Shown here: positions 2,429 through 34,347 of the stretch, piece by piece
How the letters are laid out: the number at the start of each line of letters is the position of its first letter
Numbering within the stretch: the stretch's first letter is position 1
NCBI GenBank assembly: GCA_036392135.1
Contig: DASVYO010000088.1
Coordinates: 13,131 to 77,130 of the forward strand
Reading direction: 5' to 3'
Origin: Solirubrobacteraceae bacterium
GTDB taxonomy: Bacteria; Actinomycetota; Thermoleophilia; Solirubrobacterales; Solirubrobacteraceae
DNA: 64,000 nt
Translations under genes and position numbers: made by a program
Notes under the pieces: model-generated
The model's input: the letters and a program-made list of their open reading frames with translations, nothing else
What the model was told of the DNA's origin: nothing
The model's database searches: none

Positions 2429-3100
2429 CTAGTCCTCTAGGAGGAAGTCGAACACTGCGTAGGCCAGCAGCGCGAACACCACATCATAAAGAGACAGGAT
2501 GGCCAGCCACCGCCCCGGCGGCGTGCCGGGGCCGTGCACGGCCAGCAGCGGGCCGGCGGCTCGCGCGGTGGCGATCAGGGCCGGGATCAGCAGCGGCAGC
2601 GCGATCACCGGCCCGATCAGGTCGCGCGCACGGGTGTGTACGGCGATCGCGGAGACGAGCGTGCCGATCACGGCCAGCGCCGCGTCGGCGAGCAGCAGGA
2701 CCAGGATCAGGCCCGGCAGCGCCGGGCCGAGCGGCGGCCCGAGCAGGAACAGGGCGAAGGCGGGCACGGCGACCACCTCGAGGATGACCAGGAACAGGAA
2801 CAGGGCGGTGGCCTTGGCCACCAGCATCGCCGAGCGATCGACCGGGGCGAGCAGGAAGGCGTCGAACCCGCCCTGCTCGCGCTCGGCCACGAACAACCGG
2901 TTGATGCCGAGCATGGCCGCGAACAGCAGCGTGGCGGTCAGCACCCCGGCGGCCAGCTGACCGTCGATCGTGTTCCGGTTCAGGCCGAAGTGGAAGATCA
3001 CGAACGTGACCAGCGCCAGCAGAACCATGGCCGGAATCGTCTCGAGCGTGCGCAGCTCCAGCCGCAGGTCCTTGCGCAGGACGGCGAGCGCGACCCTCAC
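2429..3100 (-). CDS. ccmB: Heme exporter permease CcmB
   Basis: KDLRLELRT N-terminus, FVAEREQGGFD...LLAP, AKA motif, LPLLIP; hydrophobic six-TM profile between ccmA and ccmC. Confidence 0.85.
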   Translation of the reverse strand: MRVALAVLRKDLRLELRTLETIPAMVLLALVTFVIFHFGLNRNTIDGQLAAGVLTATLLFAAMLGINRLFVAEREQGGFDAFLLAPVDRSAMLVAKATALFLFLVILEVVAVPAFALFLLGPPLGPALPGLILVLLLADAALAVIGTLVSAIAVHTRARDLIGPVIALPLLIPALIATARAAGPLLAVHGPGTPPGRWLAILSLYDVVFALLAYAVFDFLLED

Positions 3101-4285: not shown

Positions 4286-4762
4286 TCAGGCGCGCCGCCA
4301 CTCGCCCGAGCGCCCGCCCGACTTGCTGAGCAGGGCGACCGAGGCGATCTCGGCGCCGCGCTCCACCCCCTTGACCATGTCGTAGACGGTCAGCGCGGCC
4401 ACGGAGGCGGCCGTCAGAGCCTCCATCTCGACCCCGGTGGGGCCGGTTGTCCGCGCCTCGGCGATCAGCTCGATCGTGCCCGCCTCGACATCGATCTCGC
4501 CCTCCACGCCGACGAACGACAGCGCCAGGGGATGGCACAGGGGGATCAGCTCGGCGGTCCGCTTGGCGGCCTGGATGCCGGCGATCCGGGCCACTCCGAG
4601 CACATCGCCCTTGGGCGCATCGCCGTCGCGCACGCGCGCCGCGGTCTCGCGGCTCACGCGGATCAGGGCTCGCGCCCGCGCCGTGCGGAGGCTGCTCGGC
4701 TTGTCGGCCACGTCGACCATCCGGGCGTGGCCGGCGGCGTCGAGGTGGGTCAGCTCACTCAT
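4286..4762 (-). CDS. moaC: Cyclic pyranopterin monophosphate synthase
   Basis: [51 protein letters not shown]. Start at ATG 4762, overlapping the upstream stop. Confidence 0.95.
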
Positions 4763-5499
4763 CCGGCGGGCGTGTGGGCGTGCCGCGCGGACTCGATCAG
4801 CTCGCGCACCCGGTCGACCTCGCCCTCGCGCAGCAGCTCGATCGGGTCGGGGTCGCCGTTGACGATCCCCTCGAAGAAGGCCTTGCGGTCCTGGTAGGTG
4901 GGCAGTGTCGACTTGGCCCAGCCGCGCGCGTCGTTGAGCATCACGGCCAGCTGGGCGTAGGGCTCCCCGAACAGCTCGGCGATCTCGCGCTTCATTCGCT
5001 TGGCCAGCGCGGGCGAGGCGCCGGCGGTCGAGATGGCGACGGCCAGCGGGCCGGTGCGCACGATCGCCGGCAGGATGAAGTTGCACAGCGGCGGGACGTC
5101 GACCACGTTGACCAGCATCGCCCGCCGCTCGGCGGCGTTGAACACGCTGATGTTGACGTCGGTGTCGTCGGTGGCCGCGATCGCGATCAGCGCGCCCTCG
5201 AGGTCCGTCTCCCGGAACTCGCGTCGGACCCACTCGATTGAGCCCTCGAGGGCCAGATCGACCAGGCCCGGATGGGCCTCGGGCGCGACCAGGGTCACGC
5301 TGGCGTCGCAGGCCAGCAGTCCCTCGACCTTCTCCAGGCCGATCTCGCCGCCGCCGATGACCAGACACCGCCGCCCCGTGAGCTTCAGGCAGGCGATGTA
5401 GAAGGGCGTCTCGAGCATGTCCTTGACGCAGCTCTGATCGCAGATCCCCTTGCGGAACTGGCAGACGCACTCCTTGCCGGCGTAGGCCTGGGCGGGCAT
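4759..5499 (-). CDS. sirC: Precorrin-2 dehydrogenase / sirohydrochlorin ferrochelatase (SirC/Met8p/CysG N-terminal type) with Cys-rich N-terminal extension
   Basis: LVIGGGEIG Rossmann motif, [34 protein letters not shown]. Start ATG 5499 has TAGGCT 7 nt upstream. Confidence 0.85.
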
Positions 5500-30262: not shown

Positions 30263-30496
30263 AGCCTCAGATGATCGCCGCTGGGCGTGCGGGAGTCATC
30301 CGCGGAGCGCCAAGCGGCCGATTTCGCCCGAATTGCCCTGACCGCTCGTCAAATGCGCCCGGGCCCTGTAGACTCAGGAAATTGGTGAAGCTTGTCTGAC
30401 CACGGGGCTGGTGGTCGGGCGCAGGCGCCGCAGGACCGAACATCCGTTGATATTTTGCGAACCGGGGTGCGGAGACGTGATCTTCGCCCCAAAAGG

Positions 30497-30504
30497 TTGT
30501 GCAA
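30497..30504. promoter_or_regulatory. TTGTGCAA motif upstream of the BldC-like gene
   Basis: GTTGTGCAAT at 30496-30505 is identical to 32393-32402; related TTGCGCAG (30519) and TTTGGCAAA (30528) follow. Confidence 0.45.
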
Positions 30505-30546
30505 TAGCTGCGCGAGCTTTGCGCAGGTTTGGCAAATAACGCTGAA

Positions 30547-30780
30547 ATGCGAGACATGAACCAGATCAACGGCAGCCCGCTGGGCTTCTCCACCTCGCAA
30601 GCGGCACAGGCCCTCGGCGTATCGCTGGGGACGATCCGTCGTTGGTCGGACATGGGCTACCTGCAGTCCTACCGGACCCCGGGTGGTCAGCGTCGCTTCA
30701 GCCGTGAGCAGATCGAGAAGTTCGTCGGCTCCCTCGAGCAGCAGACCACTGACTCGGCCGCCGAGCGCAAGGCCGGCTGA
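30547..30780 (+). CDS. BldC-like / excisionase-type MerR helix-turn-helix protein
   Basis: FSTSQAAQALGVSLGTIRRWSDMGYLQSYRTPGGQRRFSREQI matches the BldC/HTH_17 pattern (RW...G.L.S.RT.GG.RR). Start ATG 30547 or 30556. Confidence 0.85.
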   Translation: MRDMNQINGSPLGFSTSQAAQALGVSLGTIRRWSDMGYLQSYRTPGGQRRFSREQIEKFVGSLEQQTTDSAAERKAG

Positions 30781-30819
30781 GCCGCGCCGCGTCGGGCTCG
30801 CGCTCAGCCTTCTTCGCGC

Positions 30820-32175
30820 TCAGCCTCCCGCGCCGGCTTCCCGGATCCGCCGCTCCATGTCGAGCTCGGTGTCGAAGTCGGCACGATCGGCGTGGCGATA
30901 CTCCACCCCCTCGCCGCTCAGCAGCTCGGCCAGTACCTCCACGTACCGACCCTCGAGCTGGGAGCCCGAGACGCGACGGAGCTCGCGCAGGGCCTCGAAC
31001 GAGCTCATCCGGGTGCGGTAGGTGTCGGCGGCGGTCAGCGTGTCATAGACCTCGGCCACGGAGATGATCTTGGCCAGCTCGGGGATCTCGTCCCCGGTCA
31101 GGCCGCGCGGATACCCGCGGCCGTCGATGCGCTCGTGGTGGGCGATGATGATCTCGGCCACCGGCCCGTACATGCCGAGGTCGCGCAGCATGTCGGCGCC
31201 CAGCTCGGGGTGGCGCTGGATCGCCGTCCAGTCCTCCTCGGTCAGCGTACGCCCGCGTTCCGCCACCCGGTCCGACAGCGCGAAGCGACCGATGTCGTGC
31301 AGCAGCCCCGCGGTGTGGGCCAGCTCGCAGTCGGCGTCGCTCATCCCCACCGCCCGCGCGATGTCCTGGGCGAATCGCGCCACGGCCGCGGCATGCCGCG
31401 AAGCAGCCTGGTCGCGGATGTCGAGCGAGCGCATCAGGCCGGCCAGCACGCCCCAGGACAGGGACACGTACTGCTCGGACCGCGCGCGGGCGCGCTCGAC
31501 CAGCTGCAGCATGTAGGTCAGCGCGAACACTGCGGTGAGGGCAAACACGATGCCGACCAGCCCGAGGCGCAGGTAGATCCCCGCGCCGGCCACGGCCAGG
31601 ATCAGGGTCAGGATCTGGCTTGGTGCGACCGACTTCTGCATCTCGAGGGTGAGGACACGGCGGCCATTGATGACCTGGCCGTACCAGGCGGCGATCACGA
31701 AGTTGAGCCCGATGTCGGCGATCGCGGCCAGGCTGACGACCGCATAGAAGGCGAGATCACCGTGCGGCCGCCCCGGGATGAGGGTGCGGACGATCATTCC
31801 GGCCACCAGGACCGGCAGCATCAGTGCGAACAGGTTGCTGATCAGCGCATAGGGCCGAGTCTTGATCCGCAGTGCTGTGGCCAGCTCGGCCAGAACCGCG
31901 ATCAGGGCCGCATAGGTGGGTCCCAGAAAGGCGGCCGCGAGCACGGCGACGATGACCGACGCCGAGATCGCGATCGAGATATGGCGGCCGAAATAGACCG
32001 CCGTCGCGCCGGAGGCAACGGCAGCAGCGCCCAGCACGAAACCCAACCCCCAGGTCGCCGACGGACCCGGCCGGGCTTCAAGGGCGGCAACGACTATGCA
32101 GAGAGGGAGGCCGACGACCAGCACAACCGTCGGCAAATCACGGCACCAACGTACGCCACGCCCGAGGCGAGCCAT
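30820..32175 (-). CDS. Membrane-anchored HD-GYP domain protein (c-di-GMP phosphodiesterase-like)
   Basis: About six N-terminal TM helices, then RHAAAVA, GLLHDIGR, IQRHPELG, HHERIDGRGYP, VAEVYD, YRTRMS. Confidence 0.9.
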   Translation of the reverse strand: MARLGRGVRWCRDLPTVVLVVGLPLCIVVAALEARPGPSATWGLGFVLGAAAVASGATAVYFGRHISIAISASVIVAVLAAAFLGPTYAALIAVLAELATALRIKTRPYALISNLFALMLPVLVAGMIVRTLIPGRPHGDLAFYAVVSLAAIADIGLNFVIAAWYGQVINGRRVLTLEMQKSVAPSQILTLILAVAGAGIYLRLGLVGIVFALTAVFALTYMLQLVERARARSEQYVSLSWGVLAGLMRSLDIRDQAASRHAAAVARFAQDIARAVGMSDADCELAHTAGLLHDIGRFALSDRVAERGRTLTEEDWTAIQRHPELGADMLRDLGMYGPVAEIIIAHHERIDGRGYPRGLTGDEIPELAKIISVAEVYDTLTAADTYRTRMSSFEALRELRRVSGSQLEGRYVEVLAELLSGEGVEYRHADRADFDTELDMERRIREAGAGG

Positions 32176-32393
32176 GCGCGCAACGTTAGCGCTGAACCAG
32201 ACGCGTTACGACCTAGCTAGACAAATCAGCAATTGCGCCAATGCATGCTGTACCTCCCTTCCCTCGGTGGGTCACGGCGCGGGATTACCTGCGAGGCTTG
32301 ACGCGAAGCCGAAGTGGGCTTTGCTTAGTTCCCTCAGGGACCCACCTTTACACGTCGACTGCACTAGTTTCCAGTCGCTTTTTGCCTTAAATG

Positions 32394-32401
32394 TTGTGCA
32401 A
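32394..32401. promoter_or_regulatory. TTGTGCAA motif upstream of CarH-like regulator 1
   Basis: 54 nt upstream of ATG 32455, in an AT-enriched divergent intergenic region. Confidence 0.45.
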
Positions 32402-32454
32402 TTTTACGCTCTTTGGCCGTGCTTAGCAACGCCGGACTCCAACTTTCTGGACAA

Positions 32455-33342
32455 ATGCGTTATCTGAAGACCAGCGAGGCGGCGGCGCTCCTGAACGTCA
32501 GCCCGAATACGCTGCGCGCCTGGGAGCGGCGGTTCGGTTTTCCCAAGCCGCAGCGGTCGCCCGGACGGCACCGGCTGTTCACGCACGGCGAGGTGGCGGC
32601 GCTGCGCGACGCGCTCCAGGAGGGACTGTCGATCTCCTCTGCAGTGTCCCGCGCGCGCGAGGGATTGGCGGCCGACGCCAACTCGCTGATCGGAGCGCTG
32701 GTCTCCTACGAACGCGAGCGGGCCGACCAGGCGATCGAGGCCGCGCTGGCCCTGCGGACGGTCGAGCGCTCGGTGGAGGAGGTCCTGCTGCCGACGCTTG
32801 AGGAGATCAACCGGCGCTACGGCTCGGAATCGGCGGCGTGGGCGTTCGCTGCCCACTGGGCCGGCGACTGGCTGCGGCGGGCAATGCGTCTCTCGCCGGC
32901 ACCGACCCGCCCCCTGTCGATCGTGGTCGGCGACGCCTCGCGGGATGAACTCGATCCCGACGCGCCCCACATTCGCGCCTTCGAGCTGTTCTGCTCCCGG
33001 GCCGGCGTCAACGTGCTCAGCCTGTCCGCCCGCGGGGTGGCCGGCATCGGCGACGCGGTGGCCGTTCACCGCCCCAACATGGTCGTGCTGGCGGGCTCCC
33101 ACCTCGACGATGACACGGTCGCGCGGTGGGCCTACGCGATCCGGCTGGCCACCGGCGCGATGCCGATCGCCGTCTACCGCCGAGGCGAGCCCCGGATCAG
33201 GATGAGGACGACGGGCGCGCGGATCCTGCCCGCTGCGGCCGGCCTGGCGCAGCACCGGATCGTCGAGATGATCGAATCCGAGCCGAGGCTCCCCGGCACC
33301 CTGCCCCAACCGGGCGAGATGCGGCGCCGGGCCAGCTTGTAG
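32455..33342 (+). CDS. MerR/CarH-LitR-like transcriptional regulator (HTH + helical bundle + Rossmann-like B12-fold domain), paralogue 1
   Basis: SPNTLRAWERRFGFPKPQRSPGRHRLF closely matches the CarH RxWERRYGFPKP..TPGGHRLY motif; C-terminal domains align by eye with CarH. Confidence 0.85.
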   Translation: MRYLKTSEAAALLNVSPNTLRAWERRFGFPKPQRSPGRHRLFTHGEVAALRDALQEGLSISSAVSRAREGLAADANSLIGALVSYERERADQAIEAALALRTVERSVEEVLLPTLEEINRRYGSESAAWAFAAHWAGDWLRRAMRLSPAPTRPLSIVVGDASRDELDPDAPHIRAFELFCSRAGVNVLSLSARGVAGIGDAVAVHRPNMVVLAGSHLDDDTVARWAYAIRLATGAMPIAVYRRGEPRIRMRTTGARILPAAAGLAQHRIVEMIESEPRLPGTLPQPGEMRRRASL

Positions 33343-33429
33343 ACCGGCGTACCCTTTAAGCACGACGCCAGGGCCGAGATTCCTTCTCGGCGAGAGCGAT
33401 CGACCAAAGTGCAAGGGGGGGTGCGGTTC

Positions 33430-33437
33430 TTGCGCAA
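33430..33437. promoter_or_regulatory. TTGCGCAA palindrome upstream of CarH-like regulator 2
   Basis: Perfect 8-bp palindrome 29 nt upstream of ATG 33466. Confidence 0.45.
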
Positions 33438-33465
33438 ACCTGCCGATACAGGCATAACTCGTCCT

Positions 33466-34347
33466 ATGAACGGCATTCGGACAAATGCGGCCGCGGTGAT
33501 GCTCGGGATCAGCCCGAACACGCTGCGCAGCTGGGAGCGACGCTACGACTTCCCCAAGCCGCATCGGTCGGCCGGTGGGCATCGCCAGTACTCCCTGGGC
33601 GAGATCGAGGCGCTGCGGATGACGCTCGCCGAGACCCACAACGTCTCCTCGGCGATCTCGCTGGCCCGCGAGCGCGGCGAGGGCCCGTCCACGTCCTCCC
33701 GCCTGAGCGCCGCCTTCGCCGCCTTCGATGAGGACACCGCCAACCGGCTGCTCGAGGAGAGCCTCGGCCTGCGCTCGGTCGAACGAACGATTGAGGAGGT
33801 CCTCCTGGACGCCGTTCGGGCTCAGGCCGAACCCGACGTGAGCACCGTGGAGTATGAGTTCGGCTGGCGCCACGCCACCGGATGGCTGTCGGCCCAGCGC
33901 CGGCTCGCGCCTCCGGCCACCCGTCCCGAGGGCGTGATGATCTTTGACGCCTCCGCGCCCTGCGACCTCGACGCGCTGCATGCCCAGGCGCTCGAGGTGG
34001 TCCTGCGCAGGGCCGGCCTGCGCACTCTGTCGCTGACCCCGGGCATCGACCTGACCCGTCTGGGACGGGCGCTGCGGGCGCTCGAGCCGCGCGCGGTCGT
34101 GCTGACCGGGCAGCGGGTGTCGCTGGACTCGATCGGACGGCTCGTGTACGCGGTTCGCTCGGTGGCCCGCGAGGTGGTCGTGTTCGACTACCGCGGCGCC
34201 GTCCCGGACACCGGGGCGAGCACCGTGCACCGGCTCGGAGACTCTCCGCTGGCCGCGCGGGATGCGCTCCTGGCCCGCCTGACGCCCGCGTCGGAGGAGC
34301 CCGGCGTGCCGCTGAGCGCGGTCCTCCCCGCGCATCACACCGCCTGA
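33466..34347 (+). CDS. MerR/CarH-LitR-like transcriptional regulator, paralogue 2
   Basis: SPNTLRSWERRYDFPKPHRSAGGHRQY; shares L..R.VER..EEVLL and DAS...LD...H segments with paralogue 1. Confidence 0.85.
   Translation: MNGIRTNAAAVMLGISPNTLRSWERRYDFPKPHRSAGGHRQYSLGEIEALRMTLAETHNVSSAISLARERGEGPSTSSRLSAAFAAFDEDTANRLLEESLGLRSVERTIEEVLLDAVRAQAEPDVSTVEYEFGWRHATGWLSAQRRLAPPATRPEGVMIFDASAPCDLDALHAQALEVVLRRAGLRTLSLTPGIDLTRLGRALRALEPRAVVLTGQRVSLDSIGRLVYAVRSVAREVVVFDYRGAVPDTGASTVHRLGDSPLAARDALLARLTPASEEPGVPLSAVLPAHHTA

Follow-up and report, generated by a model that had tools for sequence, protein, structure and literature searches.

How one diffusible messenger yields specific outputs is the question that the field asks of local signalling by cyclic di-GMP (c-di-GMP), and the best-understood answer is a local module such as PdeR/DgcM/MlrA, EAL-based and known mostly in Proteobacteria. 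In E. coli, PdeR/DgcM/MlrA is a trigger-phosphodiesterase module, with the phosphodiesterase (PDE) functionally coupled to a MerR-like factor, and PdeL is treated in the same context (PMC5052742). Among DNA-binding proteins of related folds, BldC forms head-to-tail multimers on AATTXXXX(C) direct repeats (PMC5859096), and CarH is defined as a cobalamin protein by the residues of Wx9EH, which contact the adenosyl group, and by the His of D/ExHxxG (PMC9304148, PMC11796333), its operator having the repeat unit nnnnTnnACAn (PMC9304148). CarA works without B12, yet keeps the B12 motif (PMC9304148), and the B12-independent class II LitR acts through an adjacent short LOV protein, as in Pseudomonas PmlR2/PmSB-LOV (PMC9758184). 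The present analysis concerns a run of four regulatory genes that encode a BldC-like small winged helix-turn-helix (wHTH) protein, a predicted membrane HD-GYP PDE and two CarH-like regulators (CarH-like 1 and CarH-like 2). The run lies in a 64,000-nucleotide stretch of contig DASVYO010000088.1 from a Solirubrobacteraceae bacterium (GCA_036392135.1), the whole of which is referred to as the window; the window genome is a 3.23-Mb soil metagenome-assembled genome of the order Solirubrobacterales.

The neighbourhood is probably a real regulatory unit. The reading favoured here, with slightly more confidence than doubt, is that of a Solirubrobacterales-specific local transcription circuit built around the sole membrane HD-GYP of the genome, with the HD-GYP gene as its target. 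An earlier, sequence-only reading of this DNA had seen no structural target genes in the run; the HD-GYP gene is, in fact, the obvious target, being divergent from the CarH-like 1 gene, with which it shares a putative operator region. That the arrangement is more than chance is indicated by its recurrence in many relatives in different gene orders.

The HD-GYP gene and its genomic partners

From hydropathy, about 7-8 transmembrane helices are predicted within residues 14-222 of the HD-GYP protein, followed by the HD-GYP domain at approximately residues 240-425, which matches Pfam HD_5 with an E value of 4e-36 (124.6 bits vs a cut-off of 27.2). In the alignment of 16 orthologues (36-70% identity) H261, H293-D294 and H322 are invariant, as is the motif H346-H347-E348-R349-x-D351-G352-x-G354-Y355-P356, with D378 conserved as well, so that both the metal-binding H..HD..H..HH..D residues and the HHExxDGxGYP motif that mark an HD-GYP PDE are present, and the enzyme is presumably canonical and active. 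It is the sole HD-GYP match at E<=1e-30 in the window genome, in which 12 GGDEF domains are encoded, and its substrate c-di-GMP is therefore expected to be available.

The small wHTH protein is matched by Pfam HTH_17 (6e-10) and MerR (1e-8) at residues 11-57, and it consists of a MerR-like wHTH only. Its motif GVSLGTIRRWSDMGYLQSYRTPGGQRRF is conserved, and the orthologues carry an invariant YRTPGGQRR(F/Y). The earlier label BldC-like stands, but the protein does not qualify as BldC itself: the NCBIfam excisionase domain is matched with 44.9 bits, above its cut-off, and HTH_BldC with 42 bits vs a cut-off of 77, a value that no protein of the window genome attains. The best matches in the PDB are the HTH of CtMerR (8jbs, 5e-7) and then BldC (6amk/6ama, 6e-5 with phmmer).

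Gene neighbourhoods were compared in 20 kb around relatives of CarH-like 2 and around full-length HD-GYP orthologues, in Solirubrobacterales and named genome records. In type A, which includes the window and comprises about 25 loci of family f1, the order is fumC, hydrolase, BldC-like, HD-GYP (on the opposite strand), CarH-like 1, a Zn-ribbon-PAS gene where present, CarH-like 2 and ileS. Type B (family f4, at least 8 loci) has a degenerate GGDEF-like gene, a CarH-like gene of the CarH-like 2 clade, BldC-like, HD-GYP and MFS, all co-directional and none near ileS, and type C (6 loci) has MFS, HD-GYP and BldC-like genes with no CarH-like gene. BldC-like matches (E<=1e-9) occur in 34 of 151 sampled genomes of the order and, by comparing the coordinates of HD-GYP and BldC-like matches, in about 26 of the 34 the match was found to lie less than 800 bp from the HD-GYP orthologue. 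Since the link holds in the three different gene orders of types A, B and C, the BldC-like gene behaves as a faithful satellite of HD-GYP, which inherited synteny does not explain. The CarH-like genes are looser partners of HD-GYP than the BldC-like gene. The conservation of the neighbourhood, proposed earlier as a check on whether these genes belong together, is thus borne out, in that they co-occur in related genomes.

Two proteins of genus g14 (G145, L145:2965-4500, minus strand; G151, L144:3123-4499, minus strand) combine an EAL domain, a BldC-like HTH_17 and a C-terminal helical region (Pfam EAL 4.5e-66, HTH_17 1e-10 in the stop-to-stop translation). Genus g14, which carries these fusions, is without a free-standing BldC-like gene, G145 and G151 being two of the exceptions to the linkage. 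On domain content the fused proteins are predicted to be PdeL-like DNA-binding phosphodiesterases, which provides a fusion link of this HTH type to c-di-GMP phosphodiesterases.

Two further proteins accompany the module in relatives. In most type A relatives the gene of a 163-aa Zn-ribbon and PAS-like protein (L027:8892-9383, plus strand, and equivalents) lies between the two CarH-like genes; the protein matches Pfam PAS below threshold, and the gene is absent from the window, where 123 bp separate the CarH-like genes. A paralogue, 50% identical, lies beside serS elsewhere in the window genome (C118:71509-72039, minus strand). The GGDEF-fold protein of type B (L079:3569-4543, plus strand; L040, L054, L056, L057, L076, L078, L080) is always first in the cluster, directly before the CarH-like gene. 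Since its Pfam score is sub-threshold (21.4 vs 23.8 bits) and its A-site reads DDDEF, GDDEF, ADDEF, EEDEF, EQDEL, GFGQL or AEASF instead of GG(D/E)EF, it is probably not a cyclase.

Promoter boxes and the putative circuit

The ORF table, with which Pfam and NCBIfam assignments agree, bears out the four regulatory genes in a row. The long, AT-enriched spacers that had been set against the tight packing elsewhere are also real: the GC content is 0.611 (30263-30555), 0.545 (32176-32454, the lowest of all gaps in the window) and 0.602 (33343-33465) vs 0.715 for the whole window, in which gene gaps have a median of about 57 nt by a crude ORF call. The length of two of the three spacers is explained by their being divergent promoter regions. 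No RNA family was found in an Rfam scan of the whole window, and so the long spacers are without a c-di-GMP or B12 riboswitch. BldC-like and HD-GYP are convergent, and in the 39-nt gap between them no intrinsic terminator was found. From orthologue comparison, ATG 30556 is the likely start of the BldC-like gene rather than ATG 30547, which is out of frame in the orthologue of L025, and 33466 is taken as the start of CarH-like 2 because it fits the homologue lengths of 293-297 aa.

The proposal of shared regulation is supported by rare and conserved boxes common to the module promoters. The 9-mer TTGTGCAAT has three copies in the 3.23-Mb genome, and two of them are module sites, one upstream of the BldC-like gene and one upstream of CarH-like 1. 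In the alignment of orthologous upstream regions, 13 of 14 family-f1 loci have the box (A)AAGGTTGTGCAAT at a distance of 46-59 nt upstream of the BldC-like start, and in 16 of 20 loci a related box, GAAAnnTGTGCAATT, lies upstream of CarH-like 1. Scored with a position weight matrix (PWM) built from orthologous sites, the module sites reach 31 and 27 bits and the best of the remaining genomic sites 21, a gap that is somewhat inflated as the matrix includes the window's own sites. Applied genome-wide in search of a wider regulon, the PWM gave almost no sites outside the module. The best extra site (C138:1326, 21 bits) was rejected as a module site, since it is part of a GTATGCAATrTGCGA pair that is probably another regulator's; between the divergent genes for a sugar ABC-transporter permease and a binding protein, C138:1290-1345 holds GTATGCAAT(A/G)TGCGA twice in tandem, at a distance of 22 nt.

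Upstream of CarH-like 1, the TTGTGCAAT-type box forms the right arm of an inverted repeat, which abuts the predicted minus-strand promoter at 32429-32401. The TGCAC...GTGCA pattern of this repeat has three matches in the 3.23-Mb genome, one of which is the one upstream of CarH-like 1, and in 594 kb of related loci eight of nine matches lie directly beside CarH-like or BldC-like genes; in type B, perfect arms of 10-12 nt (TGCGCAGGTTCG / CGAACCTGCGCA) stand between the CarH-like gene and BldC-like. The oligomerisation of three HTH proteins on direct repeats that had been supposed is not supported, the best-conserved putative operator being an inverted repeat.

The BldC-like gene is preceded by two AGGTT-N-GnGCAA(A)T units 31 bp apart, the second of which, AGGTTTGGCAAAT, resembles CAAACGTCCACAAAGG, a box that type C loci, although without CarH-like genes, conserve ahead of BldC-like. 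CarH-like 2 is preceded by three TGCA/TGCG units, 12 and 9 nt apart and without ACA, and by a predicted promoter with a -35/-10 spacer of 17-18 nt and the -10 element 6 nt before ATG 33466; most orthologues, one type B locus among them, share the pattern TTGCnn-17-GATAAC/ATAAAT with the start 5-7 nt on. On this basis the inverted repeat and the half-site are tentatively assigned to the CarH-like proteins, and the proximal box to the BldC-like protein. A TAnnnT-like element lies 6-8 nt before the start of the HD-GYP gene in most family-f1 orthologues and of BldC-like genes, which suggests leaderless mRNAs.

Between the minus-strand promoter and the HD-GYP start lies a six-codon mini-ORF. A majority of the family-f1 loci examined show M-x-[FWY]-R-x-x-stop behind a Shine-Dalgarno sequence, with synonymous variation of the Arg codons (CGC/CGG/CGT) and varying stop codons, and in genera g14 and g20 the mini-ORF takes the form of a 29-32-codon ORF with a single transmembrane segment and the same C-terminal end. 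It may encode a leader peptide or be the remnant of a small membrane subunit. Two candidate motifs were rejected: a third box, TTGYGCAAT, upstream of HD-GYP is better explained as mini-ORF coding sequence, and AAATGCG, of which all four window copies are in the module, with GGACAAATGCG common to both CarH-like 5' ends, has a total count at chance; in CarH-like 1 it is the start-codon context, not conserved in orthologues, and in CarH-like 2 it encodes a conserved R-T-N-A. The upstream regions of type C HD-GYP genes (L063, L081, L082, L084, L087) hold two conserved CTTAAGTAC / GTTAAG(G/T/A)AC units about 21 nt apart, a control element that differs from those of types A and B.

In the proposed circuit, CarH-like 1 would bind the TGCAC..GTGCA inverted repeat that overlaps the promoters in the shared spacer and would govern both its own transcription and that of the mini-ORF and HD-GYP. 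The cue that it answers would be one other than B12, sensed either through its C-terminal domain, in which the pocket is retained, or through a partner, which in relatives might be the Zn-ribbon-PAS protein or the GGDEF protein with the degenerate A-site. The BldC-like gene would come under the same control through the half-site AGGTTGTGCAAT upstream of it, and the BldC-like protein, whose gene is the most faithful genomic partner of HD-GYP, would act as a second, effector-less DNA-binding factor on the module promoters. The output would be the amount of HD-GYP and hence c-di-GMP turnover. The genes themselves, the complete set of catalytic residues, the missing B12 residues, the repeated linkage and the rare boxes are shown; we infer which protein binds which box, whether regulation is positive or negative, that promoters are leaderless, and what kind of signal is sensed. 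A c-di-GMP feedback or a trigger-enzyme mechanism may also play a part. For the lifestyle switch (motility, pili, biofilm) that the sequence-only reading had thought possible, the analysis gave no support.

Several observations weigh against this circuit. In a further arrangement, type D, the HD-GYP orthologue stands alone, as it does throughout family f2 and in part of f4, so that HD-GYP can do without these regulators. Family f3 has the order fumC, Zn-ribbon-PAS, CarH-like 2, (MarR), ileS, with no HD-GYP, BldC-like or CarH-like 1 gene; by gene order CarH-like 2 appears as an ancestral neighbour upstream of ileS, and its place in the window may thus be an inherited position. Another genome of the window's genus (G023) has CarH-like 2 only, the trio being missing, and each accessory gene is absent from some type A relatives (L029 without BldC-like and CarH-like 1; L046 and L048 without CarH-like 2; g14 loci without BldC-like). 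The fumC-to-polX block is wholly syntenic in family f1, which weakens co-occurrence as evidence there, and part of the boxes may belong to the promoter core (-10/-35) and not to operators. Transcript evidence in favour of the circuit is weak: in soil metatranscriptome runs X15, X18, X20 and X22 there are 151-nt contigs identical to parts of HD-GYP and CarH-like 2, and one contig covers the CarH-like 1 stop codon and the spacer (33277-33425). With low depth (about 2-4) and unstranded reads, transcript starts could not be defined, and these contigs, which could be contaminating DNA, indicate at most the presence of the genes in RNA preparations.

From the same distribution it could be argued that the run is partly a coincidence, in that only HD-GYP and BldC-like, perhaps with CarH-like 1, form a unit, with CarH-like 2 acting independently upstream of ileS, from its own promoter, with a Zn-ribbon-PAS partner and on unrelated targets. 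The family f3 loci and G023 are in line with such a division, as are the well-conserved -35/-10 elements of CarH-like 2 and its upstream TGCA/TGCG units, which differ from the TTGTGCAAT box. However, in family f4 BldC-like and HD-GYP are directly preceded by a gene of the CarH-like 2 clade, with no ileS nearby and with the inverted repeat in between, as an independent association, and the recognition helices of CarH-like 1 and CarH-like 2 are nearly identical. Partial coincidence is, on the whole, rather unlikely.

Table 1. Genes, predicted promoters and candidate regulatory elements of the module, in window coordinates.
Feature	Position	Strand	Description or basis
Divergent spacer	30263-30555		between the alpha/beta-hydrolase gene (-) and the BldC-like gene (+), 61% GC; sequence
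Box 1	30494-30505		AGGTTGTGCAAT, upstream of BldC-like; contains TTGTGCAAT at 30496-30504
Box 2	30525-30537		AGGTTTGGCAAAT, upstream of BldC-like
-10-like element	30543-30548		TGAAAT, 7 nt before the BldC-like ATG
BldC-like small wHTH	30556-30780	+	74 aa, no effector domain; Pfam/NCBIfam, orthologues
Membrane HD-GYP phosphodiesterase (predicted)	30820-32175	-	451 aa; Pfam HD_5, orthologue alignment, hydropathy
-10-like element	32183-32188	-	TAACGT, 7 nt upstream of the HD-GYP start codon
Mini-ORF	32226-32246	-	MHWRNC*, six codons; Shine-Dalgarno GGGAGG; 50 nt upstream of the HD-GYP start
Operator-like inverted repeat	32360-32400		TGCACTAGTTT-N-AAATGTTGTGCA; includes TTGTGCAAT at 32394-32402, element 32360-32402
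Sigma-70-like promoter	32429-32401	-	TTGCTA-17-TAAAAT, points to mini-ORF/HD-GYP; promoter scan
CarH-like 1	32455-33342	+	MerR-type wHTH (RAWERRF), helical bundle, Rossmann-like domain, without B12 ligands; Pfam, NCBIfam, motif alignment, tree
CarH-like 2 promoter region	33410-33459	+	TGCA (33410), TGCG (33422), -35 TTGCGC (33430-33435), -10 ATAACT (33454-33459)
CarH-like 2	33466-34347	+	architecture as CarH-like 1, without B12 ligands; PDB, AF2, Foldseek, synteny, tree

The CarH fold and its cobalamin site

CarH-like 1 and CarH-like 2 are paralogues with 37% identity. The former is matched by Pfam MerR and B12-binding_2 (3.5e-5), the latter matches Thermus thermophilus CarH (TtCarH, PDB 5c8d) with an E value of 1e-13 over residues 21-234, and with NCBIfam CarH both score at 72-82 bits (72 for CarH-like 1) vs a cut-off of 400. 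The AlphaFold2 (AF2) model of CarH-like 2, built with 45 orthologues, has a predicted local distance difference test score of 90.5 and a predicted template modelling score of 0.74, and when it was submitted to Foldseek, full-length TtCarH structures (5c8f/5c8d/5c8e) came top (E about 1e-12, 274-291 columns aligned), with the B12 domain of CtMerR and the SCHIC domain of AppA next. Both the four-helix bundle and the Rossmann-type cobalamin-binding fold are thus found in the model. The recognition helix RxWERR(Y/F/L) is kept in 58 orthologues, as RAWERRF in CarH-like 1 and RSWERRY in CarH-like 2.

The cobalamin site, in contrast with the fold, is gone. The equivalents of W131, E141 and H142 of Wx9EH are absent or not conserved in 58 of 58 orthologues from both clades, and the His of D/ExHxxG (the H177 equivalent, the lower axial cobalt ligand) is likewise absent in all 58, the position reading DASxxxDLD or DASRDELD. 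A canonical CarH paralogue with an intact W-AHGEASIAQ-EH (W-x9-EH) and DQHDLG is encoded on another contig (C128:44094-44993, minus strand) and serves as an internal control; it is probably the genome's real B12 photoreceptor. It adjoins ABC-transporter, fasciclin-like and SDR genes. In the maximum-likelihood tree both CarH-like proteins fall in one group (100/99 support), far from canonical CarH, with the CarH-like 1 clade confined to family f1 and the CarH-like 2 clade spread over families f1, f3 and f4. Since the ligand residues are missing throughout the orthologues and a canonical CarH exists elsewhere in the genome, the CarH-like proteins of the window are, as far as sequences allow it to be judged, a B12-independent offshoot of the CarH family and not B12-dependent photorepressors, the role that the sequence-only reading had named for CarH/LitR. 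No crt or photolyase genes are in the window, as the sequence-only reading had noted; no phytoene synthase or carotenoid synthase was found in the window genome, and its one photolyase gene is on contig C136, where a MerR-type HTH gene (2549-2830, minus strand) and the photolyase gene (4311-4787, plus strand) lie about 1.5 kb apart on opposite strands, an arrangement typical of a light-response pairing.

The pocket of the CarH fold is retained in the model at high confidence, with new invariant Arg, Asp, Glu and Trp residues. This feature would suit a trigger-enzyme or local-signalling module like PdeR/DgcM/MlrA, in which HD-GYP (in type B, the degenerate GGDEF protein) contacts the MerR-type regulators, or the CarH domain or the BldC-like protein binds c-di-GMP or pGpG, so that c-di-GMP turnover controls the action of the regulators on distant targets. 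A PDE, a GGDEF-fold protein and a MerR-like factor do occur together in type B loci, as in PdeR/DgcM/MlrA (PMC5052742), and the EAL-HTH_17 fusions of the same bacterial family put this HTH type physically with a c-di-GMP PDE. However, all three gene types of such a module are linked in type B relatives only, the window being without a GGDEF partner; no recognised c-di-GMP-binding motif was identified; no relationship to MlrA beyond the HTH was found; and the near absence of PWM sites outside the module speaks against a large external regulon. We regard such a module as unlikely here. A bolder form of it, to which we give still less credence, is that the CarH fold has been re-purposed as a c-di-GMP receiver, which binds c-di-GMP or pGpG or docks HD-GYP or the degenerate GGDEF protein, that the membrane HD-GYP, in gating the two MerR-type regulators and the BldC-like factor, is the first trigger phosphodiesterase of HD-GYP type, and that the six-codon M-x-[FWY]-R-x-x leader peptide adds translational control.

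That the two proteins are light-responsive regulators of LitR/CarH type, directly or via a partner photoreceptor in the manner of class II LitR, and couple light to c-di-GMP degradation, is improbable, in spite of the full CarH fold with its RxWERR helix, the label 'light-induced transcriptional regulator' that source databases give to their homologues, the existence of B12-independent LitR classes, one acting via an adjacent LOV protein (PMC9758184), and the small PAS-like gene between the two CarH-like genes of relatives, given that the adenosylcobalamin signature is absent in the 58 orthologues, that no His or Cys that could hold another chromophore is found among the invariant residues, that canonical CarH and the pair of MerR-type HTH and photolyase genes lie on C128 and C136, that the genome has no carotenoid synthase, and that the PAS-like gene, itself a sub-threshold match, is missing from the window.

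Comparison with described systems

A literature search found no published description of this combination of genes, in agreement with the earlier statement that none was known. Each part belongs to a known superfamily and the combination fits no described class; as judged from the gene content and motifs, what sets it apart is the joining of a membrane HD-GYP with a dedicated BldC-like protein and the presence of CarH-fold regulators that are without the cobalamin residues yet keep both subdomains. On the transcription circuit proposed above, a deep-branching and mostly uncultured actinobacterial order would tie an HD-GYP to dedicated DNA-binding proteins with candidate operators; with its four proteins and three short promoter regions, the system is compact and open to test. 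It also offers a natural case of the CarH fold losing B12, which bears on annotation ('light-induced') and on the re-use of photoreceptor scaffolds, and a BldC-like group outside Streptomyces gains a concrete genomic partner.

As in PdeR/DgcM/MlrA, a c-di-GMP PDE is found with a MerR-like factor, the association being known here from gene linkage, and type B adds a GGDEF-fold protein. Unlike PdeR, the PDE is a membrane HD-GYP and not a cytoplasmic EAL protein, and its gene, adjacent to those of the regulators, is under the shared putative operator. The counterpart of PdeL-like HTH-PDE fusions is found in the EAL-HTH_17 proteins of genus g14.

Like Streptomyces BldC (68 aa, PDB 6AMA/6AMK), the BldC-like protein is a MerR-like winged HTH alone, with no dimerisation or effector domain; the two share a similar core, R-W-x-x-x-G-x-L-x-S-x-RT-x-GG-x-RR, and are about 30-35% identical by eye from the alignment (phmmer E 6e-5). 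It differs from BldC in scoring under the NCBIfam BldC cut-off (42 vs 77 bits), in having the HTH of the CarH-like CtMerR (8JBS) as its top PDB match and in being almost always linked to an HD-GYP gene; to our knowledge, no such linkage exists for Streptomyces BldC.

The CarH operator consists of 3-4 tandem 11-bp repeats, whereas in the putative operator of the window the two arms, each with a single TnnACA, are inverted; the complementary strand of the box ATTGCACAA agrees with one CarH repeat unit nnnnTnnACAn, and single units AAATTGCACAA (minus strand) fit as well. With class I CarH/LitR (TtCarH, PDB 5C8D/5C8E; Myxococcus CarH/CarA) the CarH-like proteins share the MerR-type wHTH, the RxWERR(Y/F) helix and the helical bundle with a Rossmann-like module. 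They differ from that class in being without Wx9EH, the axial His and crt or photolyase neighbours, and from CarA, which keeps the B12 motif, in having lost it. The likeness to class II LitR is that of a B12-independent regulator whose signal probably comes from an adjacent small sensor, in relatives the Zn-ribbon-PAS protein. This partner is not a LOV protein and is absent from the window, the linked gene being HD-GYP, and, whereas class II LitR keeps the helical bundle only, the CarH-like proteins of the window keep both subdomains.

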